Shown in pieces: positions 4,801-22,586 of a stretch of 64,000 nucleotides of DNA. Under the pieces are notes generated by a model that searched no databases, was not told the origin of the DNA, and worked only from the letters and a program-made list of their open reading frames with translations. Source of the stretch: Polyangiales bacterium (GTDB taxonomy: Bacteria > Myxococcota_A > Polyangia > Polyangiales > Houyiibacteriaceae); assembly GCA_041576815.1 (NCBI GenBank), contig JBFGKE010000001.1, positions 147,708-211,707 on the forward strand. The letters run 5' to 3'. Position 1 is the stretch's first letter; each line of letters opens with the position of its first letter. Made by a program: the position numbers and the translations under genes.

Positions 4801-6096
4801 CTACGCGCAGGCCGCCTCGACTTCGTCGATCTCTTTCGGAATGCCTTCGGTGAGCACGGTGTGGCCGTCGTCGGTGACCAGAACGTCATCTTCGATTCGG
4901 ATCCCGATGCCACGCCACTCCGGGCCGACGTCTTCGTTGTCCGCGGCAACGTAGATGCCCGGCTCGACGGTCAGCACGAAACCCGGCTCGAGTGGGCGCG
5001 GCTTGCCGTCGAGGTAGTAGCGGCCGACGTCGTGCACGTCCATGCCGAGCCAGTGCGAGGTCCGGTGCATGTAGAACGTCTCGTGCTTCTTTTCTTCGAT
5101 GAGCGCGCCGACGTCGCCCTCGAGCAGTCCGATGTCGATCAACCCCTCGACGATCGATCGGACCGCGCCGTCGTGGATCTCCTGCAGCGTGACCCCGGGC
5201 TTGACCGCATCAATGCTCGCCTTCTGCGCCCGGAGGACCACCTCGTAGACGGCTCGCTGCGGCGCGGAAAACGCACCTGACGCGGGAAAGGTCCGCGTCA
5301 CGTCGCTCGCGTAGTAGCCGTACTCGCATCCCGCATCGATCAACACCAGCTCGCCGGCGCCCACGGCACGGTTGCCCGCGCGGTAGTGGAGGATGGTGGC
5401 ATTCGGCCCCGAGCCCACGATGCTCTCGTAGGCGGGACGCTCGCTTCCGTGCTTGCGAAAGACGTGAAGCAGCTCGGCGTCGATCTCGTATTCATGGATG
5501 CCGGGCCGCGTCAGCTGCATGGCGCGGATGTGCGCTTCACGCGTGATCGCGGCGGCGAGACGCATCGTGTCGATCTCGGCATCGCTCTTGCGAAGGCGCA
5601 TCTCGTGCAGGTGGACCGAGGGGTCGACGATGACCTCGGGCGCGGCGATTCCCCGACGGCCACCGCGGCGGAGCAGGTTCAAGCAATCGAACAGCTTGGC
5701 GTCCGCGTCGTCGTCCTGGCCGAGGCGATAGTGCAGGCGCTCGACGTTGCCGAGATAGTCGGGGAGCCGTTTTTCTAGCTCGTCGATGGGGAAGGCCGCG
5801 TCGGCACCGAAGGTTTCGACCGCGCCCTCCACGCCAGCCCGCGGCCCGTCCCAGATCTCGCGCTCTCGCTTCCTCGGCCGGACGAAAAGCACGGTTTGGT
5901 GCTCTGCGTGTTGGTTCGTGAGCACGAGGACGCTTTGTGGCTCGTCGAACCCCGTCAAATAGTAGAGGTCGCTGTTTTGGCGGTAGGGATGCTCGACGTC
6001 TTGATTGCGAACCGCGAGCGGCGCCGACGGGAACACCGCGACGCCATCTCCAATCGCTTCGAGAAGCTTCGCGCGCCGCCGTGCAAACTCCGACAT
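4801..6096 (-). CDS. pepP: Xaa-Pro aminopeptidase P (M24B)
   Basis: YRQNSDLYYLTGF, LVLIDAGCEYGYYASDVTRTFP, HRTSHWLGMDVHD, TVEPGIY, GIRIEDDVLVT. Confidence 0.95.
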   Translation of the reverse strand: MSEFARRRAKLLEAIGDGVAVFPSAPLAVRNQDVEHPYRQNSDLYYLTGFDEPQSVLVLTNQHAEHQTVLFVRPRKREREIWDGPRAGVEGAVETFGADAAFPIDELEKRLPDYLGNVERLHYRLGQDDDADAKLFDCLNLLRRGGRRGIAAPEVIVDPSVHLHEMRLRKSDAEIDTMRLAAAITREAHIRAMQLTRPGIHEYEIDAELLHVFRKHGSERPAYESIVGSGPNATILHYRAGNRAVGAGELVLIDAGCEYGYYASDVTRTFPASGAFSAPQRAVYEVVLRAQKASIDAVKPGVTLQEIHDGAVRSIVEGLIDIGLLEGDVGALIEEKKHETFYMHRTSHWLGMDVHDVGRYYLDGKPRPLEPGFVLTVEPGIYVAADNEDVGPEWRGIGIRIEDDVLVTDDGHTVLTEGIPKEIDEVEAACA

Positions 6097-6114
6097 GGAT
6101 CGAGCCTAGCAGAG

Positions 6115-7662
6115 TTACCTTCGGGGCTGCATCTCGCCCGCCCTGAAGCGGCTCCAGTAGCTTTGCAGCGCGTCGCGAACCTTGCCGCTCAGCAGCACCG
6201 CACCGAGAATGTTGGGAAAGGACATGCCGAGAATCATCAGGTCCGAGAAATCGATCACGTTACCGAGCTTGAGGACCGAACCGAGCACGATGAACCCGAG
6301 GAACAAGACCTTGTAGAGGATCGAGTAGTCCGCCCCGAACAGGTACGTCCAGCATCGCTCGCCATAGTAGCTCCACGAAATCATCGTCGAGAACGCAAAC
6401 AGAAACACGGCGAGGCTCAACACCTTTGGAAACCAGGGAAGCACCGTGGCAAAGGCCTTCGAGGTCATCAACACTCCCTCTTCGCCACCGGTTTGGTACG
6501 CGCCGGTGATCACCACGACCAGACCGGTCATCGTGCACACGACGATCGTGTCGATGAAAGGCTCTAGAAGTGCGACGATCCCTTCCCGCACCGGTTCGTC
6601 GGTCGCCGCCGCCGAGTGCGCGATCGAGGCGGACCCCACGCCGGCTTCGTTCGAGAACGCCGCGCGCCGGAAACCGGTGATGAGCACGCCTACAAGCCCT
6701 CCGAGACCGGCCTTCGGCGTGATCGCCTCGCCGACGATCTTGCCGAAGGCCGGAACGACCTGATCGGTGTGGGTCAAGATGATGAAAAACCCGGCCACGA
6801 GATAGATGCCGCACATGATCGGCACGATGAACCCCGCGACTTGGCCGATGCGGCGGATGCCCCCGATGATCACGATGCCGACGAGGAACGCGAGCACGAC
6901 GCCGTAGGCGAGCGAGCCCCAGCCACCGGAAAAGAAGGGGAGCACGTCGGCGACCTGCGCGTAGCTCTGGTTCGCTTGAAACATGTTGCCGCCCCCGAAG
7001 CTTCCGCCGACGCACATCACTGCGAAGAGGATCGCGAGCACTCTCCCGAGGCGCGGGAGGCTCAGCTCCCGGAGCCCGGATTCGAGGTACCGCATCGGGC
7101 CGCCCAAGATGTGTCCGTCTTTGCCGACCTCGCGGTACATCTGACCAAGCGTGCACTCGGCGAACTTCGACGACATGCCGAGGAACCCCGCGACGATCAT
7201 CCAAAAGACGGCCCCGGGGCCCCCGACGGCCACCGCCACGGCGACGCCCGCGATGTTCCCGAGGCCCACCGTCGCCGAAAGCGCCGAAGAGAGGGCCTGA
7301 AAGTGCGTCACCTCGCCGGGATCGTCGGGGTTGTCGTAGTGCCCGGAGGTGACCGCCCAGGCGTGCTTGAACGCCCGGAGGTTGATGAAGCCGAAGCGGA
7401 GGGTGAAGAAGGTCGCGCCGGCGATCAGCCAGACCACGATGAAGGGCAGCTTGACGTCGTGGTCGGTGCCGTTGTCCCAAAAGGCCAGGTCATAGAAGAG
7501 CACCGTGGCCATGGGACCGACGACGTTGGCGCCGAATCCCTCGTCCAGGGACCTCAGGACGCCCCCGATGCCCGCTTCCGAGTGCGCGTCGGCCTGAGCC
7601 AGAGCGGACGCCGGGAACAGCCATGCCCCAAAGACCGCGAGCGCTCGCAGGCATCTCCCCAT
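6115..7662 (-). CDS. Alanine/glycine:cation symporter (AGCS family)
   Basis: FQALSSALSATVGLGNIAGVA, GGPGAVFWM, FSNEAGVGSASIAH, FAFSTMISWSYYGE; start trimmed to MGRCLR. Confidence 0.92.
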   Translation of the reverse strand: MGRCLRALAVFGAWLFPASALAQADAHSEAGIGGVLRSLDEGFGANVVGPMATVLFYDLAFWDNGTDHDVKLPFIVVWLIAGATFFTLRFGFINLRAFKHAWAVTSGHYDNPDDPGEVTHFQALSSALSATVGLGNIAGVAVAVAVGGPGAVFWMIVAGFLGMSSKFAECTLGQMYREVGKDGHILGGPMRYLESGLRELSLPRLGRVLAILFAVMCVGGSFGGGNMFQANQSYAQVADVLPFFSGGWGSLAYGVVLAFLVGIVIIGGIRRIGQVAGFIVPIMCGIYLVAGFFIILTHTDQVVPAFGKIVGEAITPKAGLGGLVGVLITGFRRAAFSNEAGVGSASIAHSAAATDEPVREGIVALLEPFIDTIVVCTMTGLVVVITGAYQTGGEEGVLMTSKAFATVLPWFPKVLSLAVFLFAFSTMISWSYYGERCWTYLFGADYSILYKVLFLGFIVLGSVLKLGNVIDFSDLMILGMSFPNILGAVLLSGKVRDALQSYWSRFRAGEMQPRR

Positions 7663-7978
7663 CCCCGTCGAGCACCATGGCACAGCGCCAGAAAGCCGAC
7701 CAGTTTGTCGGCCTGCGGGCAGCGCCAACGTCCGCTCCGTGGCCCCACCCCGCCGTCTTGAACAAACGACCAGTCCGTCCAAACTTCGACCAACGGTGAA
7801 GCTGAAATCGACCGTACGAGCGCAGGCACAGAGGAAGCAATGATTTCGGATGCTTGAGAAGCAGTGAGACAGCGTGTTCGCGGACGCTTTGGTCCATGGT
7901 GTAATTCCTCATTTACTTCCGGTAGTTGCACATCAAGCGTTGTCCTGGACAATCCGTGACCAAGGGGTATCAAAAAGG

Positions 7979-8007
7979 TTGTGAAACGACCAAGTCGTCC
8001 GTAGGCT
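7979..8007 (+). promoter_or_regulatory. Putative sigma70 promoter of the regulator-PKS operon, with a dyad in the spacer
   Basis: TTGTGA (7979-7984), 17 nt, TAGGCT (8002-8007). The spacer contains the palindrome ACGAC-CAA-GTCGT. ATG lies 8 nt after the -10 with no SD, so the transcript may be near-leaderless. Confidence 0.45.
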
Positions 8008-8015
8008 AATTCGAC

Positions 8016-8834
8016 ATGGTGGAGTTGCTGAGCACGTCGGAGGCCGCCCGCATCATCGGGGTGGGCACGACCAGCGTAAAGCGCTGGGCGGATACCGGGC
8101 TGCTCGACTGCGTGCGAACGGCGGGTGGCCATCGGCGATTCACGCGCAACGCCCTCGACCGCTTCGTGCGCCTGCAGCAGCAGCAAGAGCCCGTGGTCGA
8201 CGAGGTCGACCGGTGGTTGGATGTGCTGCTTTCGGAGATGAGCCACGAGCTTGCGCTGGTGCGCGCGTGCGCGCGGCTGGGCTCGTGGTGCGCCGTCGCC
8301 GAAGAGCTGTCGCCGGTCCTGACCGAGCTCGGCCTGCGTTGGAGCAGAGGCGAGATCAGCGTCGGCGAAGAGCACGCCACGTCGGAACGCCTGTCGCGGG
8401 CGCTCGCTCGCATCGTCGAGTCGCTTCCGCTCTTGCCCACGGCACCTCTCTGTCTTTTGGCGTGTATCGAAACCGAAGATCACGCCTTGGGCCTTTCGCT
8501 TGCCGAGCTGTGTCTTCGAGAGCTCGGGTGGGCATCGCTTTGGCTTGGTCGGCGTACGCCCACCTCGGCGATCGTCGATCAGATTTGCAACAATGATCGC
8601 ATTCGCATGGTGGGTCTTTCCGCTTCGGAAGCATGCGCCAATCCGTCCTTACTTCGACTCATCAGCTCTTCCGTGGGTTCCGTTTGCCGGGACCGAGACG
8701 TTGCCTTGATCTTGGGGGGGAGAGGCCCGTGGCCGGAGGTGCCGAGCTACGGCACTCGAATTTGGGGTTTCCACGAGATCGAGGTCGCGCAAAGACGAGT
8801 TCAGAAAAACAGCCGGAGACCGTCCGTACGGTGA
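8016..8834 (+). CDS. CarH/LitR-like cobalamin-binding transcriptional regulator (MerR/excisionase-type HTH plus B12-binding domain)
   Basis: N-terminal HTH LSTSEAARIIGVGTTSVKRWAD...RTAGGHRRF; W-x9-EH motif (RWSRGEISVGEEH); E-x-H-x2-G motif (TEDHALG); Rossmann-like C-terminus (VGLS...LILGG). Confidence 0.85.
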   Translation: MVELLSTSEAARIIGVGTTSVKRWADTGLLDCVRTAGGHRRFTRNALDRFVRLQQQQEPVVDEVDRWLDVLLSEMSHELALVRACARLGSWCAVAEELSPVLTELGLRWSRGEISVGEEHATSERLSRALARIVESLPLLPTAPLCLLACIETEDHALGLSLAELCLRELGWASLWLGRRTPTSAIVDQICNNDRIRMVGLSASEACANPSLLRLISSSVGSVCRDRDVALILGGRGPWPEVPSYGTRIWGFHEIEVAQRRVQKNSRRPSVR

Positions 8835-8858
8835 CCAACGCCTTGCTTCGATAGGGAA

Positions 8859-11800
8859 ATGCCCGTGATCGATCGAACCCTGATTCCCGACTCCGCCGTT
8901 GCCGTCATCGGCATCGGCTGCTGGTACCCAGACGCGCCGAACCCATCGCGGCTCTGGGAGAACGTGCTGGCTCGTCGACTCGCGTTTCGTCGCCTCCCTG
9001 CTCAGCGTCTTCCGCTCGAGGCATACCACGACCCCGATTTTCGAACGCCGGACAAAACGTACGGACGCAAAGCCGCCGTCATCGATGGCTTCGAGTTCGA
9101 TTGGAAGAGGAGACGCATTCCGAAAAGCACGTTCGAAGGCACGGACATCGCCCATTGGCTTGCGCTCGAGGTCGCGCTTCAGGCGCTGTGGGACTCCGGG
9201 TATGGGCGGGGGACGCTGCCAAGAGAGCGCACGGGTGTGATTGTCGGCAATACGTTGACCGGCGAGCAGAGTCGCTCCACCAATTTGCGGATGCGGTGGC
9301 CGTTCGTCGAGCGTGCGATCCGTGCCGCTGCCAATCACGAGGGCATGAGCGTGCGCGCCACCAGTGATTTGATCGATTCCACGCGTTCGTACTTCAAGTC
9401 CGTCTTTCCGGCGGTCGACGAAGACACGCTTGCCGGGTCCCTTTCCAACACCATTGCGGGCCGGATCTGCAACTTCCTCGACCTTCAAGGAGGCGGGTAC
9501 ACCGTCGACGGGGCATGTGCGTCGTCGCTGCTGGCCGTGACCAACGCGGCCAACGTGCTGAGGAACGGCGACCTCGACGTGGCGCTCGTTGGTGGTGTCG
9601 ACATCAGCCTCGACCCGTTCGAGCTCGTGGGCTTTGCCAAAGTGGGCGCGCTGAGCCCGACGCAGATGCGGGTCTACGACCGCGCCGCGAACGGTTTCGT
9701 GCCGGGGGAGGGCTGCGGCTTCGTCGTCCTCAAGCGCCTCGAGGATGCGCGTGCGGATGGGGACTACATCTATGCGACGCTCCGCGGTTGGGGTGTGTCT
9801 TCGGACGGCGCGGGCGGGATCACCGCCCCGAGCGTCGCCGGCCAGGCGCTTGCGATTCGGCGTGCGTACAAGCGCGCGGGTTACTCCCCCGAGCTCCTCG
9901 ATTTCGTCGAGGGACACGGCACCGGCACCCCGGCGGGCGACCCGGTGGAGCTCAAGGCGATCGCGAGCGCGATGGAAGCGTACGGCGTGCGGAATCCGCG
10001 TCGGTGCGGCGTCACCTCCTTCAAGTCCATCGTCGGGCACACCAAGGCGGCTGCCGGCATCGGAGGTTTCATCAAGGCCGTCATGGCGGTGAATCGCCGG
10101 GTCATCCCGCCGACCTCTGGTTGCGTCGATCCCAGCGCGACCTTCGCAGACGACGCGCGCGTGCTCTACCCCGTGAAGACCGGGCACGTCGATTCGCCGG
10201 ACGAGGTCGTTCGGGCAGGCGTTTCCGCGATGGGGTTTGGGGGCATCAATACGCACGTGACGATCGAGTCGTGCGACCCTCCTGCATCACGGCTCAGGCC
10301 CTCCCTCGACGAGGATGTGCTGCTCGCCTCTGCACAGGACACCGAGCTGTTCGTGATGTCGGCCGCCAGCGTCGATGCGCTCAAGAAGCGCGTCGAGCAA
10401 GTTGCGGCACGCGCGGACGGCACCAGCACGGGCGAGCTCGGCGATCTTGCTGCCGAGCTCTCGCGAGAAGCGGCTCCGGACGGCTTGGTTCGGACCGCGG
10501 TCATCGCTGGCGACCCGGATGAGCTCGAGGAGCGCCTTCAAGAGGTTCTCGACGTGCTGAACGCCGAGCCGCCGGGCGAGGGAACGGTCGTACGCTGTCC
10601 GCGCGCCCGGCATCGCGCTTGGCTTTCGAATGCGCCCCGGCGGCCCCGGGTGGGGTTTCTTTTCCCGGGGCAGGGCTCGCAGCAGCTCGGCATGGCGCGT
10701 CGGCTCGTGCGACGCTTCGATTGGGCCAAGCGGTTCGCAGAGCAGACCGATGTGTGGCTGGCCGAGCTCGGGTGCGAGCCCGTGACCCCGTTGGTGTTCC
10801 GGCCCGTGGAGCGCGCACACGACCAAGAGCAGGTGCGTGACTGGGCACGGACGCTCCGCCAAACCGAACACGCCCAACCCGCCATCTGTTTCGCGAGCGC
10901 GCTGTGGTTGAAGTACCTCGCGAGACTGGGGGTGACCCCTGACTTCGTGGGCGGTCACAGCTTGGGGGAGCTGAGCGCGTTTCATGCAGCCGGCGCGCTC
11001 GACGAGCGCGCACTCCTTCAACTGGCGGCGACGCGCGGCAAGATCATGGCAGGCGCGAGCGCCTCGGGAACGATGGCAAATCTCTCGTGTACGCGCCAAG
11101 AAGCCGAGGCCCTGATCGCCGAGGTCTCCGGATACGCGACGATTGCAAACCTGAATGCATCCGATCAAACCGTCGTCTCGGGCGACCGCGAGGCGGTGGA
11201 GCAGATCGTCGAGCTGGCCAAGAAGCGCGCGATGGCCGCAGCGCCGCTCGCGGTCTCCGCGGCGTTTCATTCGGCCCACTTTCACGAGGCTGCGTACGCG
11301 CTCCGGCAAGCGGACGGTGTGCCGGAGATCTCGAACCCGATGCATGTGCCTGCGATCAGCGCGATCGACGGCACCGAGATTCGCACGGGGGTTTCGATGC
11401 GAGATTACTTGGGGCGCCAGATGTGCGCCGAGGTCGACTTCGTGAGGCTGGTGCGCGCGATGGACGAACGCTGCGACCTCCTCCTCGAGGTCGGGCCCGG
11501 GCGCGCTCTGAGCGGCCTCGTCAAACGGATCATCGACGACGAGCGTTTGAGCTGCTTCCCCCTCGAATCGCGGCCCGACAAGGATGAAGACCTCCACGTC
11601 GCCATTGCGGCGCTTTTCGTCGGCGGTCGGCGTCTTCGACTCGATGCGCTCTACGAGGGCCGTCTCAGCAGGCCGTTCATCCCGGCATCTCGAAGAAAAT
11701 TCATCGAGAACCCGTGCGAGCGTCCCTTCGTCGACGAAATTGCGGCTCGAGTCACGACGAGCGCCTCCCATCAGCCAGCGCTCTCAGTTCTGCCGCAGGC

Positions 11801-14800
11801 AGGGTCCGACGAGCACGCCAGGGAGGCGGAGCCACCACATCGCAGCGTCATCGAATCCCAGATCGTCACGAAGCCCTCCGTGCACGGCGCCGTTCTCGCA
11901 TCGGTGGAGGCGCAAACGGGGTTCCCGATCGAGACTCTGACCCTCGACCTCAGGCTCGTGGATGACCTTCACCTCGATTCGATCAAGACCGTGGAGCTGG
12001 TCTCCGAGGTCGCTGACCAGCTCAAAATCGAGGTGGATTTCGACGCGGCGCAGTTTGCAGACGTGACGCTCGGAGAGTTGGTCGAGCGGATGGAGGCTCT
12101 GCAGACCGATTCCTCACCGGCGCCGGCTCTCGACTCGGTGGGCGCCGCGGGCGCGACGCGGAGCACGTCGGCGCGCGAACGGCCCTGGGTGGCGAATTTT
12201 GCGCTCGAGTGGAAGGAATCCACGTTGCCCCCAGCGCCGGAGTACAACGATCTGAAGACGGGGCGCGCTCTCTTGGTGGCGCCCGACCCTTCTGATGGTC
12301 TCGTCACGGATCTCGCAAGGGAGCTCGGCAAGCGGGGCGTCGACGTGATCGTGTCGGGGTCCAGGCTGGACTCCGACGGGGACGCGCCCGTGGATCACCT
12401 GCTGGTCGTGAGCCCGGACGCGAGCGCTTCGGACGACGTTGCGGCATTGCACGAGGTCGTCGAGCTCTACACGGGCGCCGCGCGTCTGCTGCCATCGACG
12501 GGAGCGCGCCACGGAGGCGCCTCGTGCGTGGCGTGGATTCGAGCGCGCTCATCCGAGCCGCAGGCGAACGGCCACGCCGACTGGGCGGCAGATGCGTTCG
12601 CCGCCACGGTTCACCTCGAGCGAAGGCAGCTTCGCGTTCGTTCGCTCGACTTCGCCGGCGCCGACCTTCAACCCGGTCGCATCGCGGAGGCCCTTGTCGA
12701 AGAGCTCGCGGGCGACGGGACGTTCGAAGCGGCGCGCTATGACCGCGCGGGGCGACGCTCGGTGGGAGTGCCCACGCTTCAGTCCCGAACGGCGTACAAA
12801 CGCCGAACCACGGCCATATGCGCGGACGACGTCGTGCTGGTCACGGGCGGAGCCAAGGGAATCACCGCAGAATGTGCTCTTGCGCTCGGGCGCGAGACAA
12901 GGGCCACGATGGTTCTCGTGGGCAGCTCGGCGGCGCCCGAGGACGCTGCCGAGCCCGACCCGGGGAACGAGATCGGTGCGACCTTGGCGAGGTTCCGAGC
13001 GGAGGGGCTCCGGTGCCACTATCGCCAGTGCAATCTGGCGGTGCGCGACCAGGTGAACCGCCTCGTCGCGGGCGTGCAGCGCGACTTCGGCTCGCTCGAT
13101 GCGGTCGTCCACGGCGCCGGGCTCAATCGGCCGCGTCCGGTCGAGGAGCCTGACGCCGCGGAAGTCCTCTCCGAGATCGAACCGAAGCTCGCGGGAGCGC
13201 TTCATCTCTTCGAGGCGCTCGATTCGGCGCCTCCCAAGATGTTCGTCGCCCTCACCTCGATCATCGGCGTGGTGGGAATGCCGCGCAATGCCTGGTACGG
13301 CTTTTCAAACCAAGCTCTGGACCGCAGCCTCGAGCGCTTTGCGGCTCGCCATCCGTCCGTCGAGACCCTGTCCGTGGCGTACAGCGTCTGGGACGAAGTC
13401 GGCATGGGCGCGAAGCTCGGAAGCATCGAAAGGCTCGCGAAGCTCGGCATCGACGCGATCCCGGTGGAGGAAGGGGCCGCGCGTTTTCTGGAGCTCGTGG
13501 TGCGTGACCCGGGAACGCGCGAGGTCATCGTGGCCGCACGTTTGGGCGGCCTCGATACGTGGCGTCCCGCGCTGCCGCCGCTGCCGCGGGCCCACCGCTT
13601 CATCGACCAGATCGTGAGGCTCGAGCCGGGGCGTGAGCTCGTCTGTCGGACCAAGCTCGACGTCGAGCGAGACCCATATGTCGAGGATCACGTGTATGAG
13701 GGCGCCCGTCTCTTGCCGGCGGTGTTCGGCATCGAAGCGATGGCCGAGGCCGTCGCACACGTCACCGGTCGACCCGAGCTCCCTTTCCCGCTTTGGCTCG
13801 AGGACGTCGAGCTAAGGCGGCCGCTCGTCGTTCATCCGGAACGTGGGCTGCTGATCGAGATTCGCGCGCGAGTCGACGACGGTGACTTGTTCGAGTCGGC
13901 GCCACAGCGGATTCGCGCAGAGGTCCGCTGCCAACAGACGGGGTTCGCGAGCGCTCACTTTTCAGCATGTTTCGTTCTCGGCGCCGACACGAAAACGGGC
14001 GCGCGGTTTTTCGAGATGCCGGCCGAAGCTTTGCCCATTCGACCGCGCCAGCATCTGTATGGCTCCGTTCTCTTCCAGGGCCCGCGGTTTCAGCGAATCG
14101 AGAAGGTCTTCGCGCTCGACGCGCAGAGATGTGTCTTCGCCGCGGAGCGGGACCCGACACGCGAGAGCTGGCTCCTCGGCGATCCGTATTTCCGGGACGC
14201 TCTGCTCCAGAGCCTGCAGCTTTGCGTCGTGCCGGATCAGTGCCTGCCGGTACGCGTCGATCGCTGGGAGATTCACGGCCAACCGGCAAAGAGGGAGAGG
14301 GGCCTCGCACGGGCCACGATCGACGGCCACGAAGACGACACGTACATCGGGACCGTGAATGCCGTCAGCGCAGACGGATCGCCGCTCGAGAGCCTCCTCG
14401 GCTACCGCGCACGCACGCTGTCCCAACGACAAGACTGGCCCCGCGCGGCCGAGCTCGCCTCGCGCGGTGCTGTCCCGGCCGTTCCGCTTCGCGTGATTCA
14501 CGGCGATGCCCTGGAAGACGACGTGCGCATCCAGGTGAATCGGCCCGAGCCATGGGACGGCGGGGTCTTTTATCGAGATGTGCCCGGCTACGGCCACGAA
14601 GGCCAAACGGCGTTTTTCTGTCGTTTTCCCTTGAGCGCGCAGGATTCCTCCTCGGTGAGCGGGTCACTGAACTTCACCAGCTACTTCCGGTGGGCGGGCA
14701 AGCTTCGGGAGTGGGGCGGGATGAACACCCCGGGCGTCTACGAGGGCATCCTCGAAATGCTCGGCTCGAACTCGGTGATGTCGGCGACGAACGAATGCGA

Positions 14801-15590
14801 GACTCGCATCTTCAAGGTGCCGAAGCGCAACGACTTCATCGAAGGCCGGTATTGGATGGAGTACGTCAACAAGGGCGACGCGGGAAACATCTTCGAGTGG
14901 TGGCGCATCCCTTTCCCGAGCGGCGAGCCCGAAATGATCGCGTGGACGAAGATGCGGATCTCGGCGGTCAAGTCGGTGCGCCACGGCGTCATCTCCGCCA
15001 CGGATTGGCCAGACTTCTTGTACCGGTTCTTGAAAGACATGGGAGACGATGCGCCCGAGCCCACGGTCGGCCCCGCGCTCGAGCTCGACCTCGGCGCCAC
15101 CCTGTTTGCCAAGGTGCCGGGGCCTCAGCCGGGCCCGCTCCTCGCCGAGCAAACCTACTCCACCGCAACAGAGGACTCCAACGTCGTCGGCAACATCTAC
15201 TTCGCGAACTACAGCGCGTGGCAAGGTCGACTGACGGACGGGTTCTTTCACTCCCTGGCGCCGCACCTCTTCGAAGAGCGCGGCACGCACGGAGAGCTCC
15301 ATCGTGCTCAGACCCGCATCAGCCAGCTCCGAGATGCGATGCCGTTCGACGAGGTTGGCGTTCTCATGCGTCTCGAGGAGCTTTACGAGCGCGGGGCGCG
15401 GTTGAGCTTCGAGTTTTTCCGGAAAGAGCCAGCCGGCGTCACCAAAATCGCCGCGGGGCGCAACCTCATCGCGTGGGCGACGCTCGAGCGCGGCGCAGCG
15501 CCTCGACCGTTGCCATGGCCGGAGGAGCTCCGCGACGCGCTTCTAGCAGCCACGGGACAAAGCGTGCGCATCTCGCAGGGCCATGTCTGA
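8859..15590 (+). CDS. Enediyne-type (PksE-like) iterative type I PKS: KS-AT-ACP-KR-DH-TE(hot-dog)-TE(hot-dog)
   Basis: KS: LWENVLARR, GNTLTGE, EDTLAGSLSNTIAGRICN, DGACASS, EGHGTGT, GHTKAAAG. AT: FPGQGSQ, GHSLGE, AFHS. ACP: DDLHLDSI. KR: VTGGAKGITAECA, YGFSN. DH: DHVYEGARLLP, DPYFRDA. C-terminal hot-dog motifs: TSYFRWAGKLRE and EDSNVVGNIYFANYSAWQGR. Confidence 0.9.
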   Translation: MPVIDRTLIPDSAVAVIGIGCWYPDAPNPSRLWENVLARRLAFRRLPAQRLPLEAYHDPDFRTPDKTYGRKAAVIDGFEFDWKRRRIPKSTFEGTDIAHWLALEVALQALWDSGYGRGTLPRERTGVIVGNTLTGEQSRSTNLRMRWPFVERAIRAAANHEGMSVRATSDLIDSTRSYFKSVFPAVDEDTLAGSLSNTIAGRICNFLDLQGGGYTVDGACASSLLAVTNAANVLRNGDLDVALVGGVDISLDPFELVGFAKVGALSPTQMRVYDRAANGFVPGEGCGFVVLKRLEDARADGDYIYATLRGWGVSSDGAGGITAPSVAGQALAIRRAYKRAGYSPELLDFVEGHGTGTPAGDPVELKAIASAMEAYGVRNPRRCGVTSFKSIVGHTKAAAGIGGFIKAVMAVNRRVIPPTSGCVDPSATFADDARVLYPVKTGHVDSPDEVVRAGVSAMGFGGINTHVTIESCDPPASRLRPSLDEDVLLASAQDTELFVMSAASVDALKKRVEQVAARADGTSTGELGDLAAELSREAAPDGLVRTAVIAGDPDELEERLQEVLDVLNAEPPGEGTVVRCPRARHRAWLSNAPRRPRVGFLFPGQGSQQLGMARRLVRRFDWAKRFAEQTDVWLAELGCEPVTPLVFRPVERAHDQEQVRDWARTLRQTEHAQPAICFASALWLKYLARLGVTPDFVGGHSLGELSAFHAAGALDERALLQLAATRGKIMAGASASGTMANLSCTRQEAEALIAEVSGYATIANLNASDQTVVSGDREAVEQIVELAKKRAMAAAPLAVSAAFHSAHFHEAAYALRQADGVPEISNPMHVPAISAIDGTEIRTGVSMRDYLGRQMCAEVDFVRLVRAMDERCDLLLEVGPGRALSGLVKRIIDDERLSCFPLESRPDKDEDLHVAIAALFVGGRRLRLDALYEGRLSRPFIPASRRKFIENPCERPFVDEIAARVTTSASHQPALSVLPQAGSDEHAREAEPPHRSVIESQIVTKPSVHGAVLASVEAQTGFPIETLTLDLRLVDDLHLDSIKTVELVSEVADQLKIEVDFDAAQFADVTLGELVERMEALQTDSSPAPALDSVGAAGATRSTSARERPWVANFALEWKESTLPPAPEYNDLKTGRALLVAPDPSDGLVTDLARELGKRGVDVIVSGSRLDSDGDAPVDHLLVVSPDASASDDVAALHEVVELYTGAARLLPSTGARHGGASCVAWIRARSSEPQANGHADWAADAFAATVHLERRQLRVRSLDFAGADLQPGRIAEALVEELAGDGTFEAARYDRAGRRSVGVPTLQSRTAYKRRTTAICADDVVLVTGGAKGITAECALALGRETRATMVLVGSSAAPEDAAEPDPGNEIGATLARFRAEGLRCHYRQCNLAVRDQVNRLVAGVQRDFGSLDAVVHGAGLNRPRPVEEPDAAEVLSEIEPKLAGALHLFEALDSAPPKMFVALTSIIGVVGMPRNAWYGFSNQALDRSLERFAARHPSVETLSVAYSVWDEVGMGAKLGSIERLAKLGIDAIPVEEGAARFLELVVRDPGTREVIVAARLGGLDTWRPALPPLPRAHRFIDQIVRLEPGRELVCRTKLDVERDPYVEDHVYEGARLLPAVFGIEAMAEAVAHVTGRPELPFPLWLEDVELRRPLVVHPERGLLIEIRARVDDGDLFESAPQRIRAEVRCQQTGFASAHFSACFVLGADTKTGARFFEMPAEALPIRPRQHLYGSVLFQGPRFQRIEKVFALDAQRCVFAAERDPTRESWLLGDPYFRDALLQSLQLCVVPDQCLPVRVDRWEIHGQPAKRERGLARATIDGHEDDTYIGTVNAVSADGSPLESLLGYRARTLSQRQDWPRAAELASRGAVPAVPLRVIHGDALEDDVRIQVNRPEPWDGGVFYRDVPGYGHEGQTAFFCRFPLSAQDSSSVSGSLNFTSYFRWAGKLREWGGMNTPGVYEGILEMLGSNSVMSATNECETRIFKVPKRNDFIEGRYWMEYVNKGDAGNIFEWWRIPFPSGEPEMIAWTKMRISAVKSVRHGVISATDWPDFLYRFLKDMGDDAPEPTVGPALELDLGATLFAKVPGPQPGPLLAEQTYSTATEDSNVVGNIYFANYSAWQGRLTDGFFHSLAPHLFEERGTHGELHRAQTRISQLRDAMPFDEVGVLMRLEELYERGARLSFEFFRKEPAGVTKIAAGRNLIAWATLERGAAPRPLPWPEELRDALLAATGQSVRISQGHV

Positions 15591-18279
15591 CGCAGCGAGT
15601 CGCATTTCAGGTCCAGCGACTTTCGACGAAGCGCGGCGGAAGACGAACATTCAGGGCCTGAAAGCGGCGACCCTCTCGGCGCTCGTCGTCGTGTCGTCTT
15701 TTGCGTGGGTGGAGTACTACCAGGTCCGAGAGCATTTCTGGCTTCTTCAAACGCTCCGCGGAGTTTGTCTGGCCGTGCTTGCGGTGATCGCGTTCGCGGC
15801 ATTCCGCGCGCGGCCATGGACGGTCCGTCACGTGGACGCTCTGACGATCGGTGCGTTCCTGGTCTGCGGTTGGTACAGCATCACGCTCATGCTGCTTCAC
15901 GATGGGTACAACTCCGAGTTCTTTCTCACGCTCGTCTTCATCATCGTAGGAGTAGGCGCGGTCACCCTTTGGCCGATCGAGACCGCGTTGGTCTACATGC
16001 TCCTCATCATCGTCTCCTATCTCGCGCCGCTCCTCTTCGGCCTCGCCGAGGTGAAGAAGGGGGACGTGTTCCCGATCCATCTCAGCTTCCTGCTCGGAAT
16101 GGCGATGATCAGTGTCGTCGCGCAACAGCTTCGCTACCGAATCGAGAGGCGGGAGTTTCTGACCAGCCGAAGCCTCGAGGAAACCAAGGCCTCTCTCGAG
16201 GTGGCGTACGACCGGCTCAAGGAGCTCGACCAGCTCAAAACCGACTTCTTTGCGAACGTTTCCCACGAGCTTCGAACGCCCCTTACGCTTTCGCTCGGGC
16301 CGCTGGAGTCGCTGCTGCGGGAACGACACCGGCCCGAGGTCGAAGAGCAGCTCGAAGGCCTCCGGCGAAACCAGCTCCGGCTGCTCCGCTTGATCAACCA
16401 GCTGCTCGATTTCGCGAAAGTGGAGTCCGGCAACGTCCAAGCGGAATTCGGCAAGGAGGACGTAGCCGCCTTGGCGCGCCGGCTGGTTGGCGATGTCGAA
16501 GGCGCTGCCGGAGCGAAAAGCCTCGAGATCGAGCTCGCCGTGCCGTCGGAGCCGGTGTGGCTTTACATCGATCGCGAAAAGCTCGAACAGACGCTCCTCA
16601 ACCTGCTCTCGAATGCCTTCAAGTTCACGCCAAAGGGCGGCCGCATCACCGTGAGGGTGAGGGAGCTCGATCAGGCGGTGGAGATCCGCGTGAGCGACAC
16701 AGGCATCGGGATCGACCCCGACAAGATCCACACGATTTTCGACCGGTTCGCCCAGGCGGACTCGTCCGAGACCCGCCGCTACGCGGGGACGGGGATCGGC
16801 CTTTCCCTGGTGAAGACCAACCTCGAGCTTCACGGCGGCACGGTCGACGTGCAGAGCGAGCCTGAGCGCGGCACGACGTTCATCCTCTCGATTCCTCGCG
16901 GCAAGGCGCACCTCCCCGACGCACACGTGTTCGAGCATTCGCGAACGCCGGCGGAGTCGGCCCTGAAAGCCGAGCAGCTCGTCGAGTTCGCGGCCGAGCC
17001 CCAGGAAGAGCCGGCCGACGCCCATGCGGCAGACCAAGCCCTGCGGCTCGATCAACTCGATGAAGACGAGGACGACCCCGTCTCCGTGGATTGGGTCAAC
17101 CGGCTCTTCGAAATCGACGATGACAAGCCCCGCGTGCTCGTCGTCGACGATGCCGCGGACATGCGGCGGTATCTATGCTCGATCCTCGAGCCCGATTACG
17201 AAATCAGAACTGCCAAGGATGGCGCCGAAGGCTTGCAGGAGGCCACACGCTGGGATCCCGACCTCGTCGTGTCCGACGTCATGATGCCGGTGATGTCGGG
17301 CTCCGAGCTGTGTCGGGCGATCAAGCGCGCAGGAGGGCGGCTCGCGCGCACACCGGTCATCCTCGTGACGGCGCGCGCCGAGGAGCAGTCCAAGCTGCGC
17401 GGGCTCGGATATGGGGCTGACGACTATCTCCTGAAGCCGTTTCTTCAGGACGAGCTCCTCCTTCGCGTGCGAAATCTCGTGACGAAGCGCCGTCAAGAGC
17501 GTGCGCTCTTCGACGCGCACCTCACGCTGCGCGCGCAGCACGACAACCTGCTTTCGGACCTCGAGCTCGCCCGCAACTTTCAGGAGAGCTTGCTTTCCAA
17601 GCTCGAGATGCCCGAGCCGCTCGACGCGCACGTGGAGTTCCACCCCGCGGACGTCGTGGGCGGCGATTTTTATCACCTCACGTCGCTCGGCCCGAGTCGT
17701 GTCCGGCTGTTCGTCGCGGACATGGTCGATCACGGGGTCAAGGCTGCCGTGCGGGCGGCGGCGGCGTGGCCGGAGTACACGAGCCTCGAGCATCCTGAGC
17801 TCGGCCCGGCCGACGTTCTGACGCGCCTCAACGATGTCGCCACCTCGAAGTATGCCGACCTGTCCGGGAGCTTTCTCTGTCTCGATCTGGACACCGCGGC
17901 CGGCGCACCGACCTCGGCTTGCTACGCCCAGGCCGGCGAAATGCCGTTCATCGTGATGGCCAACGGATCATTCGAGACACCCCCTCACACCGAAGGGTTC
18001 GTCGTCGGCTTGTTTCCCGGCATGAGCTACCAGTCGCGGGAGCTGAGCCTCACCCCCGGCACCCGTCTGTTTCTTTACTCCGATGGCCTGTACACTCAAC
18101 CTGACCACACGGGGCAGACCTTCCGTGAGGGGGGGTTGAAAGAGGCCTGGAGCATCGCGATGGGGCACACCGACATCCGAGCGGCAACCGAGGAGATCAT
18201 CGAATCGATGAAGCGGTTTCGCGGCATGACGGCGCAGCTCGACGACGTGACGCTGATCGGCATCGAGGTAGGGAAATAG
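15583..18279 (+). CDS. Membrane hybrid sensor: 6 TM helices - HisKA - HATPase - receiver - SpoIIE/PP2C phosphatase
   Basis: Six hydrophobic segments with short loops; H-box FFANVSHELRTPL; N-box NLLSNAFKFT; G-boxes SDTGIGI and GTGIGLSL; receiver VLVVDD...SDVMMP...LLKPF; PP2C ARNFQESLL, GGDFY, LYSDGL, DDVTLI. Overlaps the PKS stop by 8 nt. Confidence 0.9.
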   Translation: MSDAASRISGPATFDEARRKTNIQGLKAATLSALVVVSSFAWVEYYQVREHFWLLQTLRGVCLAVLAVIAFAAFRARPWTVRHVDALTIGAFLVCGWYSITLMLLHDGYNSEFFLTLVFIIVGVGAVTLWPIETALVYMLLIIVSYLAPLLFGLAEVKKGDVFPIHLSFLLGMAMISVVAQQLRYRIERREFLTSRSLEETKASLEVAYDRLKELDQLKTDFFANVSHELRTPLTLSLGPLESLLRERHRPEVEEQLEGLRRNQLRLLRLINQLLDFAKVESGNVQAEFGKEDVAALARRLVGDVEGAAGAKSLEIELAVPSEPVWLYIDREKLEQTLLNLLSNAFKFTPKGGRITVRVRELDQAVEIRVSDTGIGIDPDKIHTIFDRFAQADSSETRRYAGTGIGLSLVKTNLELHGGTVDVQSEPERGTTFILSIPRGKAHLPDAHVFEHSRTPAESALKAEQLVEFAAEPQEEPADAHAADQALRLDQLDEDEDDPVSVDWVNRLFEIDDDKPRVLVVDDAADMRRYLCSILEPDYEIRTAKDGAEGLQEATRWDPDLVVSDVMMPVMSGSELCRAIKRAGGRLARTPVILVTARAEEQSKLRGLGYGADDYLLKPFLQDELLLRVRNLVTKRRQERALFDAHLTLRAQHDNLLSDLELARNFQESLLSKLEMPEPLDAHVEFHPADVVGGDFYHLTSLGPSRVRLFVADMVDHGVKAAVRAAAAWPEYTSLEHPELGPADVLTRLNDVATSKYADLSGSFLCLDLDTAAGAPTSACYAQAGEMPFIVMANGSFETPPHTEGFVVGLFPGMSYQSRELSLTPGTRLFLYSDGLYTQPDHTGQTFREGGLKEAWSIAMGHTDIRAATEEIIESMKRFRGMTAQLDDVTLIGIEVGK

Positions 18280-18288
18280 AGCACACCG

Positions 18289-18711
18289 ATGGGACCTGCT
18301 GGAACATTCGAGTTGAAGGGCCATTCTCGACTCCAGATCGATCACCGGGTCGACGAGCATCACGAGCTCACGATCTGGTTCCAAGGAGATATGGTGGTGC
18401 GTCGGGGGACGCGTTTCGACCGATATCTCAGCCATTTGGAAGAACTGGCGGCGCTTGCCTGCGGGACCCCGGCAACCCACGTGCACTGCCACCTCGAGGA
18501 CCTCGGGGAGGCGCTTTCCCGTGCCCAGCACGCGATCTATCGAATGCTAAATGGCATGCGCGGACATGGAATCCCGATTACTATTTACGCGACGGGCGAA
18601 CGTCCAGAGCAATCGGAGCATCTGAAGATGTCCAAGCTCTTCGTGGAGGGGCTATCCAAGCAACCCGGGCCTCCGCTCGAGTTGGTGGAGATCAGGCGGC
18701 GAGCATCTTGA
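18289..18711 (+). CDS. STAS-like / SiaC- or Slr1659-like phospho-acceptor protein (putative)
   Basis: 140 aa; LTIWFQGD...VHCHLEDLGEALSRAQHAI...IPITIY aligns by eye with the STAS/SiaC topology; Ser77 sits at the anti-anti-sigma phosphorylation position. Context next to a PP2C and a kinase supports the call. Confidence 0.55.
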   Translation: MGPAGTFELKGHSRLQIDHRVDEHHELTIWFQGDMVVRRGTRFDRYLSHLEELAALACGTPATHVHCHLEDLGEALSRAQHAIYRMLNGMRGHGIPITIYATGERPEQSEHLKMSKLFVEGLSKQPGPPLELVEIRRRAS

Positions 18712-19259
18712 GCAAAGATTCCCAAGTCATGTATGACCTGCTCCTCAAGCCGCTCCGGTTCGATCCGGAGCTGACCGAGTCGGTCATCTTCGGGTTGAAG
18801 TGGACCCTGAGTTCGATGTTTGCCGACCCGTTTCCGGTCCGCGACGTGGTTGTCGCCGTTCGCGAGGTCGTCGACAACGTCTTGACGCACGCCGATTGGG
18901 ACGCGTCGCCGGCGCCTTCGCTTTACGTCCGCTACCGGCTTCACAAAGGCAAGCCCCAGCTCTGCGTGTCGACCACGAACGCGGTCAAAGACGTCGAAGA
19001 GGCGCAGCGCGCGCTGCGCTTCGTGAAGGAATACGTGGGAAGCAAGTCTCCCGCCGCGCTTCATCGCGAGCTCACGGCGCACCTCATCGAATCGGCCAGC
19101 ATTCGCAACAACGGGGGCATCGGCCTTCTACAGGTCGCCTCGTCTCCGCGCTGCAAGCTCGACATCCGCCTCGAAGGACAGGTGTTCCACGTACGGGTCG
19201 ATGTGAATGTGCCGCAGCTTCAAGCGGCCCCGGCGCTCCAAAACCGCACCGGGTCCTAA
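18708..19259 (+). CDS. HATPase_c-like Ser/Thr kinase (SiaB/Slr1658/anti-sigma-like)
   Basis: N-box AVREVVDNVLTHA, VSTTNAV, G2-like NNGGIGLLQVA; TTG start overlaps the upstream TGA (an ATG at 18729 is an alternative). Confidence 0.65.
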   Translation: MSKDSQVMYDLLLKPLRFDPELTESVIFGLKWTLSSMFADPFPVRDVVVAVREVVDNVLTHADWDASPAPSLYVRYRLHKGKPQLCVSTTNAVKDVEEAQRALRFVKEYVGSKSPAALHRELTAHLIESASIRNNGGIGLLQVASSPRCKLDIRLEGQVFHVRVDVNVPQLQAAPALQNRTGS

Positions 19260-19388: not shown

Positions 19389-22300
19389 ATGGCCGTCGAC
19401 TTAGTCGTTTTACCCACTCAATCCGGCCAACCCGGCTATCAGCGCGCCCCCGTTGTAATTCTGCTCACGTTGGTTTCGGCGCTCGGCGTCTCGGTGGGCG
19501 TAGAAGCCCAGTGCTCGACGGCCGACGCCGACATGAACGGCGTGCCTGACGTCTGTCCGGCGGGCTCCAACTACATCGCCGGAACCGGTGGAGACGACAA
19601 GCTGCGCGGGACAAACGGGCCAGACTGCATCTTCGGGTTTGGAGGCGACGACGACATCGATGGCCGCAAGGGCGACGACTACATTTGCGGTGGGGCCGGC
19701 GACGACAAGCTCAAGGGCAAGGACGGCACCGACATCATCCACGGCGGGGACGGCGCCGACGAAATCAAGGGCGGCAACGGCAACGACGCCCTGAGCGGGG
19801 GGCCGGGGATCGACACGGTCGACGGGGGCAACGGCACCGACTCCTGTGTCGAAGAGGTGCCTGGAACCTCCCAGGGTCTGACCAGCTGCCAGCTTCTCAC
19901 CTACGCCAACGTGAGCGGCCTCGAGGTTTCGCAAGACGACACGGGCTTGCTCGTCACCTGGGAAACCACCACCGAGGTGGGCTCGGTGGCCTTCCGCCTG
20001 TGGCGGAGTGACGCCGATGGCCGCCTTCGGTGGGTTGGCGAGGTGCCCGCCGCGCCCGAAGGTGAAGTGCACGGAGCGCGCTACTTCCTCCGCGACGACG
20101 AGGCGCCGCTCGACAGCACCGTCGAATACATCATCGAGGAGCGCACGGTCTCGGGAGGGAGCGTACAGTACGGCCCGTACGTTCGAAACCCCGAGCCCGT
20201 GGACGCTCGCTTCGCGTTCGCGCGTGTCCGCTCCCGAGCTGCCGGCCGCGTCCCGCGCGAGATCGAGCTACGCCGTAGGGCGCGGCCAGTGCGCGCGCAC
20301 TCGCTCCGGTCGGCCGCGCGGAAGAGCGCCGCGGCGGTCTCTGCGGCGGTTCTGACGGTCGCCGAGCCGGGTGTCGTCGAAGTCGATGCCGGGACGCTGG
20401 CCGACGTGTTCGGGGCGAGCCGGGACGGCGCTGCAGGACTGATTCAGTCCGGCGGGCTCGATCTCCGCCTACGCGGAGAGCCCGTGGCGTGGCACCCAGT
20501 CGGCGACGGAGCTGCGCTCCGGTTCGTCGCCCCTGAAATCAATTCGCCGTTCTCTCGCGAGCACCGCTACCTCCTTTCGATCAATGACGGCCTGACGATG
20601 GAGGCGGCGGTGCTCGTCGAGGGGGCTGCGATGGCGCCTCACACGTTCGTCGCGACGAAGCGGTTCGAAGAAAACGTGTTCCCCGGACCGACGGGAGGCC
20701 CCGACCCCCGCCAAGACCTCTTCTTCTGGCATGCGCTTTCCTCCGAGGCGGAGGCGGTCATCCCGGTTTCGCTTCCCGGGCTGGTCGACGCCGGCGCGGA
20801 AGAGCTTCGGGTCTACGTCCACGGAGCGACCGAGCATCCGGAGCAGCCACACCTCGTCGAGCTTCGTTGGAACGGGCAGAGCCTCGGCACGTTCGAGCTC
20901 TTCGGGCGAAGCCGACACGCGATTCACGTGCCTCTCGACGGCGTGAGCGTCGCCGCGCTGAACGAGCTCGTCGTCGTGCAGCACGTTGCAGGGGAAGCGC
21001 CGCCCGTCCTCTACGTCGATGCCCTCGAGGTGGATTACGCGCGTTTCGCCGAGGCGGATGCGCCCTCGTTCGGTTTCGGCGCGGCCAGTGACGGCACGCA
21101 GCGCGTGACCGGTCTCACGTCTCAAACGGTTCATCTCTACGACGTCACGGACCCGAGCGCGCCGCGGCACTACGGTGAGGTGCCTGTCGACGAATCGGGG
21201 GGCCTGGGCTTTACGTCGGAGGCGCACGCCGGTCGTTTCCTCGCCGCAGCCCCAGAGAGCGTGTCGGTGCCGGTCGCGGTCGCACCGCACGACGCCGCCG
21301 ACCTCCGCTCCCCCGACCTCCGGGTCGACTACCTGGTCGTCGCGGCATCGCACCTGGTCGAGGAGGCGCAAACGCTTGCAGGCCATCGAGAGGCCGACGG
21401 CTATCGCACCCTGGTGGTCGACATCGACGATGTCTTTTGGGCGTTCGCCGACGGCGAGCCCGACCCCCTCGCGGTTCGCGACCTTCTCGCGTTTGCATCG
21501 CGCCAGTGGGCGGTCGCACCGCGATTCGCAGTGCTCGTCGGCAAGGGCAGCATGGACTACCGAGACCTGATCGGGCTCGGCGGCAACTGGCTGGCGCCGG
21601 CGCTCGCCGAGACCGACGGCGGCCTGTTCCCCTCGGATTCGATGCTCGGGGACATCGTCGGTGATGACGGCGTACCCGAGATCGCGATCGGTCGCTTGCC
21701 GGTGACGACGGCCGACGAGCTGAGCCGCGCGCTCGACGCGATTCGGTCGTTCGAAGCCAATCACGAGACGATGAAGGCGCTCTTCGCGGCCGACGACTCC
21801 GAGCGCGGCGAGTTCGTAGCCACCGCCCGCGCGCTTGCCGCGGACGTGGCACCGGGGCGCCTCGATGAGATCGACCTGAATACCGAAGCCCTAGAAGAGG
21901 CTCGACATCGACTGCGGTCCGCGTGGCAGAGCGGCGTCAGCTGGCTGACGTATGTCGGACATGGGGGCCTCGATCGGTTGTCGACCGAGGGCCTGCTCAC
22001 CACCGCAGACCTCCCCGAGCTCGCGCAGACCCCAAGCAGCCCGGTCGTGCTCGGTTGGAGCTGCAACATCGCCCGATTCGACATCCCCGGCTTCGCATCG
22101 CTCGGAGAGCAGCTGGTGGTCGACGGGGGGAGCGCGGCGGTCTTCAGCGCGACCGGCTGGTCGAATCACGTCGAGACCGATGAGCTTCGACAGGCCTTCA
22201 ACGCGGCGGTGTTTGCCTCCGATGCGGAAACCCTCGGCGACGCCATGCTCCGCGCACATGAGGCGGCCGCGAACGCTCCGGTGGCCCAGCATCGAGTGTA

Positions 22301-22547: not shown

Positions 22548-22586
22548 TCTGTTCGGTCTCCGGCTGATTTCTGCGATACTTCAGGC

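Follow-up and report, generated by a model that had tools for sequence, protein, structure and literature searches.

The 64,000-nucleotide stretch analyzed here (the window; Polyangiales bacterium, an uncultured marine myxobacterium; GenBank assembly GCA_041576815.1, contig JBFGKE010000001.1, positions 147,708 to 211,707 of the forward strand) carries five codirectional genes that span 8016 to 19259 on the plus strand, with gaps or overlaps of +24, −8, +9, and −4 nucleotides (nt). The first, a stop-free open reading frame at 8016..8834, encodes P0001, the 272-residue regulator that is the subject of this work and that joins a helix-turn-helix (HTH) DNA-binding domain of the HTH_17/BldC type to a CarH-type cobalamin-binding domain. 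It is followed by the gene for an iterative type I polyketide synthase (PKS), P0122 (2243 residues; 8859..15590), and by that for a multi-transmembrane (6-TM) sensor histidine kinase fused to a receiver and a PP2C (SpoIIE) phosphatase (15583..18279), the start of which overlaps the PKS stop by 8 nt. The last two genes encode a 140-residue protein without family match (18289..18711), which is conserved in all related loci reaching that far and is probably the phospho-substrate of a partner switch, and a 183-residue protein weakly matching DUF6272/HATPase_c_2, like the RsbW/SiaB-like kinases (18708..19259). A consensus scan found no promoter-like or terminator-like site between the regulator and PKS genes.

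P0001 is composed of the HTH domain (residues 4 to 57), a four-helix bundle (63 to 136), and a Rossmann domain (145 to 240). An earlier reading of the letters alone, hereafter the initial annotation, had reported intact W-x9-EH and E-x-H signatures behind a MerR/excisionase-type HTH; we found both motifs where it had placed them, behind a domain of the HTH_17/BldC type. The first signature, W109-SRGEISVGE-E119-H120 (codons at 8340..8375, plus strand), corresponds to the cap over the adenosyl group of adenosylcobalamin (AdoCbl). It aligned with W131/E141/H142 of CarH from Thermus thermophilus (TtCarH) and with CtMerR, a photoreceptor described below, and it is preceded by GLRW at residues 106 to 109, which gives the GxxW motif G106-LR-W109. 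The lower axial His lies in E154-D-H156-A-L-G159 (ExHxxG; 8475..8492, plus strand), and G178-RRT-P182 (GxxxP), S202-A-S204, and G234-G235 follow. The protein thus carries the cobalamin motif E/DxHxxG...SxT/V...GG with its His ligand, the third residue of SxT/V being Ser and the spacing exceeding the textbook x41 by 1 residue. This pattern of motifs is not due to chance. Among Pfam models, HTH_17 scored best (39.9 bits), ahead of MerR_1 (36.5) and B12-binding_2 (25.6; cutoff, 23). Exact-sequence look-ups with P0001 and P0057 gave no match. The genome encodes a PduO-type adenosyltransferase, which could supply the cofactor.

Sequence and structure searches pointed to the same relatives. In a sequence search of the PDB, the best match to P0001 was CtMerR (8jbs; E = 8e-24), with both the HTH and the cobalamin-binding domain matched; TtCarH came next (E = 6e-11), and the BldC-DNA entries 6ama and 6amk matched the HTH alone (E = 6e-5). 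A separate 44-bit HTH match aligned residues 5 to 52 of P0001 with residues 18 to 65 of CtMerR. An AlphaFold (AF2) model built from an alignment of 58 homologues (pLDDT 90) showed the four-helix bundle and the Rossmann fold, and each of its 50 best Foldseek matches in the PDB was an AdoCbl photoreceptor (CarH, CtMerR, and photocobilins), headed by 5c8d, 5c8e, and 5c8f, with E = 2.5e-12 for TtCarH. Compared with the cobalamin-binding domain of CtMerR, the model gave a TM-score of 0.75 and a root mean square deviation of 2.8 Å.

CtMerR, from Chloracidobacterium thermophilum (PDB 8JBS/8JBT; Yu et al., FEBS J 2024), binds AdoCbl and passes from tetramer to monomer upon green-light photolysis (PMC11796333). 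Regulators of its type share the SignatureFinder signature GxxW, EH, GxxxP, and GxxH, and CtMerR responds to light although its Trp is followed by Arg instead of His (PMC11796333). P0001 resembles it in the two-domain build, in a near-identical type of HTH (SVKRW..G.L.C.RT.GGHRRF), in GxxW, EH, and GxxxP, that is, three of the four signature elements, and in having no His after the Trp. It differs in length (272 versus 327 residues), in a cobalamin-binding domain that is only ∼26% identical, and in GxxH, where Thr replaces the Gly. CarH, in turn, is defined on the DNA-binding side by a MerR winged helix with RxWERRY and by 11-bp nAnnTnnACAn repeats in its operator (PMC8156234, PMC9304148). The CarH/LitR proteins of T. 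thermophilus, Myxococcus xanthus, and Bacillus megaterium share with P0001 the W-x9-EH and ExHxxG...GG motifs and the fold, together with an autoregulatory arrangement, proposed here for P0001, in which a direct-repeat operator overlaps the regulator's own sigma-70 promoter. Unlike them, P0001 has no His after the Trp, a different HTH type and operator, and a regulon made of a PKS and a signaling module instead of crt genes. The recognition helix of P0001 reads SVKRWADTG, without RxWERRY, and nAnnTnnACAn repeats were absent from the conserved upstream element AAnCGACCAAnTCGTCCG; because both features are missing, P0001 is not a CarH. The CarH-like identity given by the initial annotation was therefore right in part: the motifs, the fold, and the match to CtMerR bear out an AdoCbl photoreceptor type, whereas the HTH, the operator, and an NCBIfam CarH equivalog score of 59 bits against a cutoff of 400 (BldC scored 44 bits) speak against CarH proper. 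P0001 is a CtMerR-type regulator of the AdoCbl photoreceptor kind that would work like CarH.

Homologues of P0001 (a set of 631 sequences) allowed us to follow the locus across genomes. Those at 56 to 82% identity fall into a single clade, all of whose members come from assemblies of uncultured Myxococcota and in which the regulator heads a cassette with the PKS, the kinase-receiver-PP2C protein, and the two small proteins. This order was kept in 9 full loci with differing flanks, and the regulator-PKS linkage persists down to 56% identity although the upstream flanks are unrelated. The regulator was present in only 4 of the 18 sampled species of the window's GTDB genus (genomes G008 to G144), so the cassette is an accessory island. 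The kinase module always follows the regulator in the clade. The PKS was more variable: across ∼28 loci, it was intact in 9, had at least its start in 10 more, and was gone or reduced to a remnant in 9 (L020, L023, L025, L102, L103, L110, L114, L115, and L028), which retain the promoter/operator, the regulator, and the kinase module. The remnants consist of ketosynthase (KS) residues 3 to 75 only, of KS residues 9 to 309 joined to the thioesterase, of a thioesterase stub, or of nothing.

Comparison of the clade loci also revealed the promoter. The element ATTGTAAAnCGACCAAnTCGTCCGTAnnCT was kept upstream of the regulator in 27 of 27 loci, the remaining intergenic DNA being unalignable. In the window, the conserved operon promoter occupies 7979..8007 on the plus strand, with a −35 hexamer TTGTGA (7979-7984), a 17-nt spacer (7985-8001), and a −10 hexamer TAGGCT (8002-8007). 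In the window, 8 nt separate the −10 from the start codon, and this distance is 6 to 8 nt in 25 of 27 loci; given this proximity, the operon transcript is probably leaderless. The spacer measured 17 bp in all 27 loci and carried 1.5 to 1.8 bits of information per position. Since a spacer should be free to vary and this one is conserved, it would contain a protein-binding site, and the 17-bp element at 7984..8000 (plus strand) is probably the operator. It is made of two direct half-sites, AAACGACC (7984-7991) and AGTCGTCC (7993-8000), 9 bp apart from start to start. A weight-matrix scan of the 3.69-Mb genome returned this single strong site (31.8 bits; next best, 18.2) and no further operator copies that would have signaled a wider regulon. 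In addition, when the 215 nt preceding regulators of sister clades in other phyla were examined, the half-site ARWCGWCC showed a 26-fold enrichment (35 found versus 1.3 expected) at these loci, whose relatedness makes the P value overstate their independence. We read the operon as autoregulated, with a repressor site that would occlude the promoter, and the optimal 17-bp spacer fits occlusion rather than activation of the MerR type.

Other repeats lie in these upstream regions. An inverted repeat, TTGTCCTGGACAA (7940-7952), precedes the −35 by ∼30 nt, with partial retention in L100 and L001; an operator-like sequence, AAACGACCAGTCCGTCC, lies at the distal end of the intergenic DNA (7765-7781); and another subclade has a different palindrome, CTTTATTG...CAATAAAG, at the upstream position. 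Sister-clade loci of Planctomycetota and Myxococcota in which the regulator adjoins a cluster of the furan fatty acid type and a divergent epimerase/DUF1731 gene (L033 to L047, L119, L130 to L133, and others) contain 2 to 5 copies of GGACGAWT in the shared upstream region.

The PKS P0122 is the only one in the genome. It has the domain order KS, acyltransferase (AT), acyl carrier protein (ACP), ketoreductase (KR), and dehydratase (DH), followed by a conserved domain of ∼230 residues and a hot-dog thioesterase of the E10/E7 type; it contains one ACP and no enoylreductase (ER). The C-terminal hot-dog domain is homologous to SgcE10 ("ACP-polyene thioesterase"), CalE7, and DynE7, so that P0122 shares with the enediyne-type PKSs (PKSE) that work with these enzymes, and with RerA/RerB of Rhodococcus erythropolis PR4, the KS-AT-ACP-KR-DH order and a polyene-type hot-dog thioesterase. 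RerA/RerB follow the same domain logic and produce conjugated hexa- to nonaenes (PMC11563203). P0122 differs from these systems in having the thioesterase fused, in its single ACP, and in being placed, along with a kinase module, under a B12-type regulator. Neither an ACPS nor a phosphopantetheinyl transferase (PPTase) domain was matched in P0122, and E3/E4/E5 genes were not among its neighbors, which are signaling genes; one PPTase, encoded elsewhere in the genome, is available in trans. As KR and DH occur without ER and a polyene-type thioesterase is fused, P0122 should release a yellow conjugated polyene, in agreement with the polyene-type PKS that the initial annotation had placed next to the regulator. 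The region between DH and thioesterase had no PDB relative. This stretch (in 14450-15590, residues ∼1870 to 2243) is the best-conserved portion of the PKS (78 to 92% in relatives) and repeats the N-terminal motif of the thioesterase (SLNFTSYFRWAGKLRE versus GNIYFANYSAWQGRLTD), which suggests a double hot-dog, with this stretch as the second half, rather than a PPTase. Two large genes for C25 (gingipain-type) peptidases, the first with RTX calcium-binding repeats, lie directly downstream of the cassette (19389-24941).

No crt genes are adjacent to P0001, as the initial annotation had stated, and we found none within the 64-kb window; a generic amine-oxidase flavoprotein (45377-47026) was rejected as CrtI, with 127 bits against a crtI cutoff of 238. 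The claim that the regulator heads a PKS instead of carotenoid genes, with the polyene as a carotenoid substitute, did not survive a search of the genome (3.69 Mb, 99.6% complete) for crt genes, which found crtB, crtI, and a lycopene cyclase gene. On contig C5, crtI (605 bits) adjoins crtB within an operon (6026-13234 of locus L018, C5:104000-123000; minus strand) that encodes the CarH homologue P0123, a SOUL-domain protein, a 465-residue protein, lycopene cyclase, CrtI, and CrtB. P0123 has RVWERRY, W-H-x8-EH, GHLH (GxxH), and GxxxP and is a canonical MerR-type CarH; two tandem 11-bp repeats upstream of it, AATGTAGACAA and CAGATAGACAA, fit nAnnTnnACAn. Because the genome already contains this CarH-headed crt operon, any polyene made by P0122 would be additional to carotenoids. 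A CMAS-type methyltransferase gene lies near the crt operon (15248-16303 of L018). A third MerR-B12 paralogue, P0124 (contig C36, locus L019, 4250-5143, minus strand), has an intact W-x9-EH and KxxH and adjoins genes for a response regulator and an FHA-TadA-type ATPase.

Sister clades at 39 to 51% identity comprise regulators from Planctomycetota, Sandaracinaceae, Nannocystis, Haliangium, Kofleriaceae, and Trueperaceae. About 25 of their loci adjoin a cluster of DUF1295, CMAS, UfaD-like amine oxidase, DUF1365 (UfaO), and CMAS genes, with a divergent epimerase/DUF1731 gene, and one sister-clade regulator heads a lipocalin-UvdE pair. The furan fatty acid pathway that singlet oxygen induces includes UfaO, which is the DUF1365 protein, and UfaD, to which the oxidase corresponds (PMC7380195). 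With such clusters next to the sister regulators, the regulons of the family appear to consist of photo-oxidative and light-stress genes, and these predicted regulons are independent support for light as the family signal.

Within the population to which the window belongs, the cap motif itself is polymorphic. Three other assemblies contain the locus at 99.3 to 99.6% identity. A comparison over 5087 nt gave 22 differences, of which 12 are concentrated in a 50-nt patch that covers W-x9-EH (8328..8377, plus strand, codons 105 to 121; P = 5e-19). Relative to the W-type allele of the window, the C-type allele has L105F, W109C, G112S, S115G, A121I, and 7 silent changes. The C-type was found in contigs of runs X2 to X4 (contig ends in X1), and the W-type is listed for runs X6 to X10, with zero differences in the contigs of X7, X8, and X9. 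Run X10, from one marine sample, holds both alleles as a clean assembly bubble: a shared contig ends at 8327 and continues in two branches, one with 12 changes (depth, 3.6) and one with none (depth, 2.0). We rejected an assembly artifact as the origin of the W allele, since the W patch occurs in runs X6 to X10 and was seen on contigs of all five.

Run X6 contains a relative with 17 differences in the 249 positions surrounding the patch (∼93% identical elsewhere) and with none in the 64 positions of 8322-8385 (P ∼0.002). Because full identity is confined to the patch, the W-type patch would have passed from one lineage to another by recombination over a very short tract. Such an exchange is supported by the silent codons, as those of the C-type (CTT, CGG, CGG) match relatives L001 and L100 and those of the W-type (CTG, CGT, AGA) do not. 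No donor of the C-type patch was found among 29 related loci (best match, 48/62). A diversity-generating retroelement was rejected as the source: a duplicate or template of 8280-8430 was not found in the genome, and the substitutions were not specific to adenines. Smaller clusters of differences between near-identical assemblies (7910-7924, 9488-9518, and 10135-10204) point to frequent short-patch recombination in this population, elsewhere as well as at the motif. A missing Trp is the published hallmark of CarA, which is B12 independent (PMC9304148); by analogy, the C-type protein may be light-blind.

We propose that, in the dark, P0001 would hold AdoCbl under the W109/E119/H120 cap, with H156 as lower ligand, and would oligomerize, by analogy with CtMerR as a tetramer. 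The dark oligomer would sit on the two direct ARWCGWCC half-sites in the 17-bp spacer of its own sigma-70-type promoter and block RNA polymerase. UV-to-green light would cleave the Co-C bond, the oligomer would dissociate, and the promoter would fire, giving a single transcript for the regulator, the polyene synthase, the membrane kinase-receiver-PP2C protein, and the two partner-switch proteins. The polyene would add to the carotenoids, which have their own CarH. Our confidence that P0001 is a CtMerR-type AdoCbl photoreceptor, repressing its own operon in the dark from an in-promoter site and released by light, is slightly above even; we infer AdoCbl binding, the light response, repression, the PKS product, and the purpose of the polyene from sequence.

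Several observations weigh against this proposal. The Pfam B12-binding model scored 19.8 bits on P0001, under its cutoff of 32.1, and the Gly of GxxH is Thr153 (T153-E-D-H156), at a position that is non-Gly in 25 of 26 clade members and Gly in most sister-clade sequences; as this Gly supplies a main-chain carbonyl in CtMerR (PMC11796333), the Thr may be tolerated. The consensus scanner called no promoter in 7700-9000, and the −10 of the window matches at only 3 of 6 positions, so that the promoter was called solely from conservation across loci. No RNA run is listed as holding the regulator gene. The PKS was deleted in at least five independent events on the tree while the regulator and the kinase module stayed, which indicates that the PKS is not an essential target and that the kinase module is the regulator's stable partner. 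At least five events (W to C; EH to GQ, RR, LL, QR, VH, or EY; His to N or D) have removed the W, EH, or His ligand from 14 of 49 clade members, versus 0 of 33 sister-clade sequences, where all three are invariant (Fisher P = 5e-4); among the clade loci, we saw no correlation between this loss and that of the PKS. Loci L004 and L005, without EH and His, retain the operator and the whole cassette, so that in some lineages the cassette can work without B12 photochemistry. Finally, the W109C allele is common in the population of the window (three assemblies and runs X2 to X4). The last three points would be expected if P0001, or much of its clade, repressed the same promoter independently of B12 and light, with B12 motifs as a fading inheritance, losses restricted to this clade, and relief by another signal, for example, the output of the adjacent kinase/PP2C partner switch. 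CarA of M. xanthus, a CarH-type repressor that lacks the Trp and represses without B12, is a precedent (PMC8156234, PMC9304148), and its loss of the Trp of W-x9-EH resembles the C-type allele and the degenerate clade members. CarA differs, however, in being a tandem duplication beside carH that needs the antirepressor CarS, whereas the loss described here is allelic or lineage-wise in a single-copy gene. Moreover, the allele of the window retains every contact residue, as does ∼70% of the clade, far above the drift expectation at 55 to 80% identity; PKS-deleted loci still have intact motifs; and the apparent exchange of the W-type patch between lineages suggests that it is useful. We consider this main alternative, that P0001 is or is becoming a light-independent repressor, unlikely.

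The position of the operator between the hexamers, which is that of classical MerR activators, and the weak −10 of the window would also suit a protein that activates the promoter in one of its states, either by binding between the −35 and the −10 or by assembling into head-to-tail multimers along the direct repeats. BldC binds direct repeats head-to-tail. The Streptomyces BldC (6AMA/6AMK) shares with P0001 the HTH_17/MerR-like DNA-binding domain (the NCBIfam and PDB matches given above) and, unlike P0001, has no sensor domain. MerR activators untwist spacers of 19 to 20 bp, not the 17 bp kept in 27 of 27 loci, and all characterized CarH-type proteins, as well as CtMerR by inference, are dark-state repressors, which makes activation distinctly improbable. 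The B12-binding domain as such would be compatible with a sensor of cobalamin availability that plays no role in light. We give this very little credence: a W-x9-EH cap points specifically to the adenosyl form and to a photoreceptor, the top structural matches were all photoreceptors and included no corrinoid enzymes, the sister regulons are light-stress genes, and the cassette has no B12 metabolism genes. A different question, which concerns the purpose of the operon and not the mechanism of the regulator, is whether the polyene is an antioxidant pigment, acting as a screen or quencher, at all. It could instead be a membrane ligand or photo-oxidizable reporter of the 6-TM kinase, in a synthase-receptor pair; the 8-nt overlap of the two genes, the loop-poor multi-TM input of the kinase, a cluster without export or tailoring genes, and the carotenoid genes already carried by the genome all fit this idea, yet persistence of the kinase module in 9 PKS-less loci shows that the polyene is not needed for its retention, and we regard such a role as possible but doubtful. 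A joint scenario is, in our estimate, also unlikely. In it, a light-gated polyene synthase and a kinase module reading the polyene or its photo-oxidation products would make up a light-consumable membrane dosimeter, and the population would maintain a sighted/blind polymorphism of W and W109C alleles through a 50-nt patch swapped on very short recombination tracts.

To our knowledge, B12 photoreceptors are known almost exclusively as carotenoid-gene switches. If P0001 acts as proposed, light control in this organism would be tied to a polyketide polyene and a signaling module and not to isoprenoid pigments. The CtMerR type is without known target or operator, and the P0001 locus provides it with a candidate regulon, promoter, and operator that are directly testable. 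Being compact and paired with a short operator, P0001 might also be put to use as a green-light switch whose DNA specificity differs from that of CarH. Lastly, the PKS and the B12 signature have each been lost repeatedly, and W and C alleles coexist in one marine sample; together, these observations may represent a natural experiment in the conversion of a photoreceptor into a light-blind repressor, that is, a CarH-to-CarA transition within a population.

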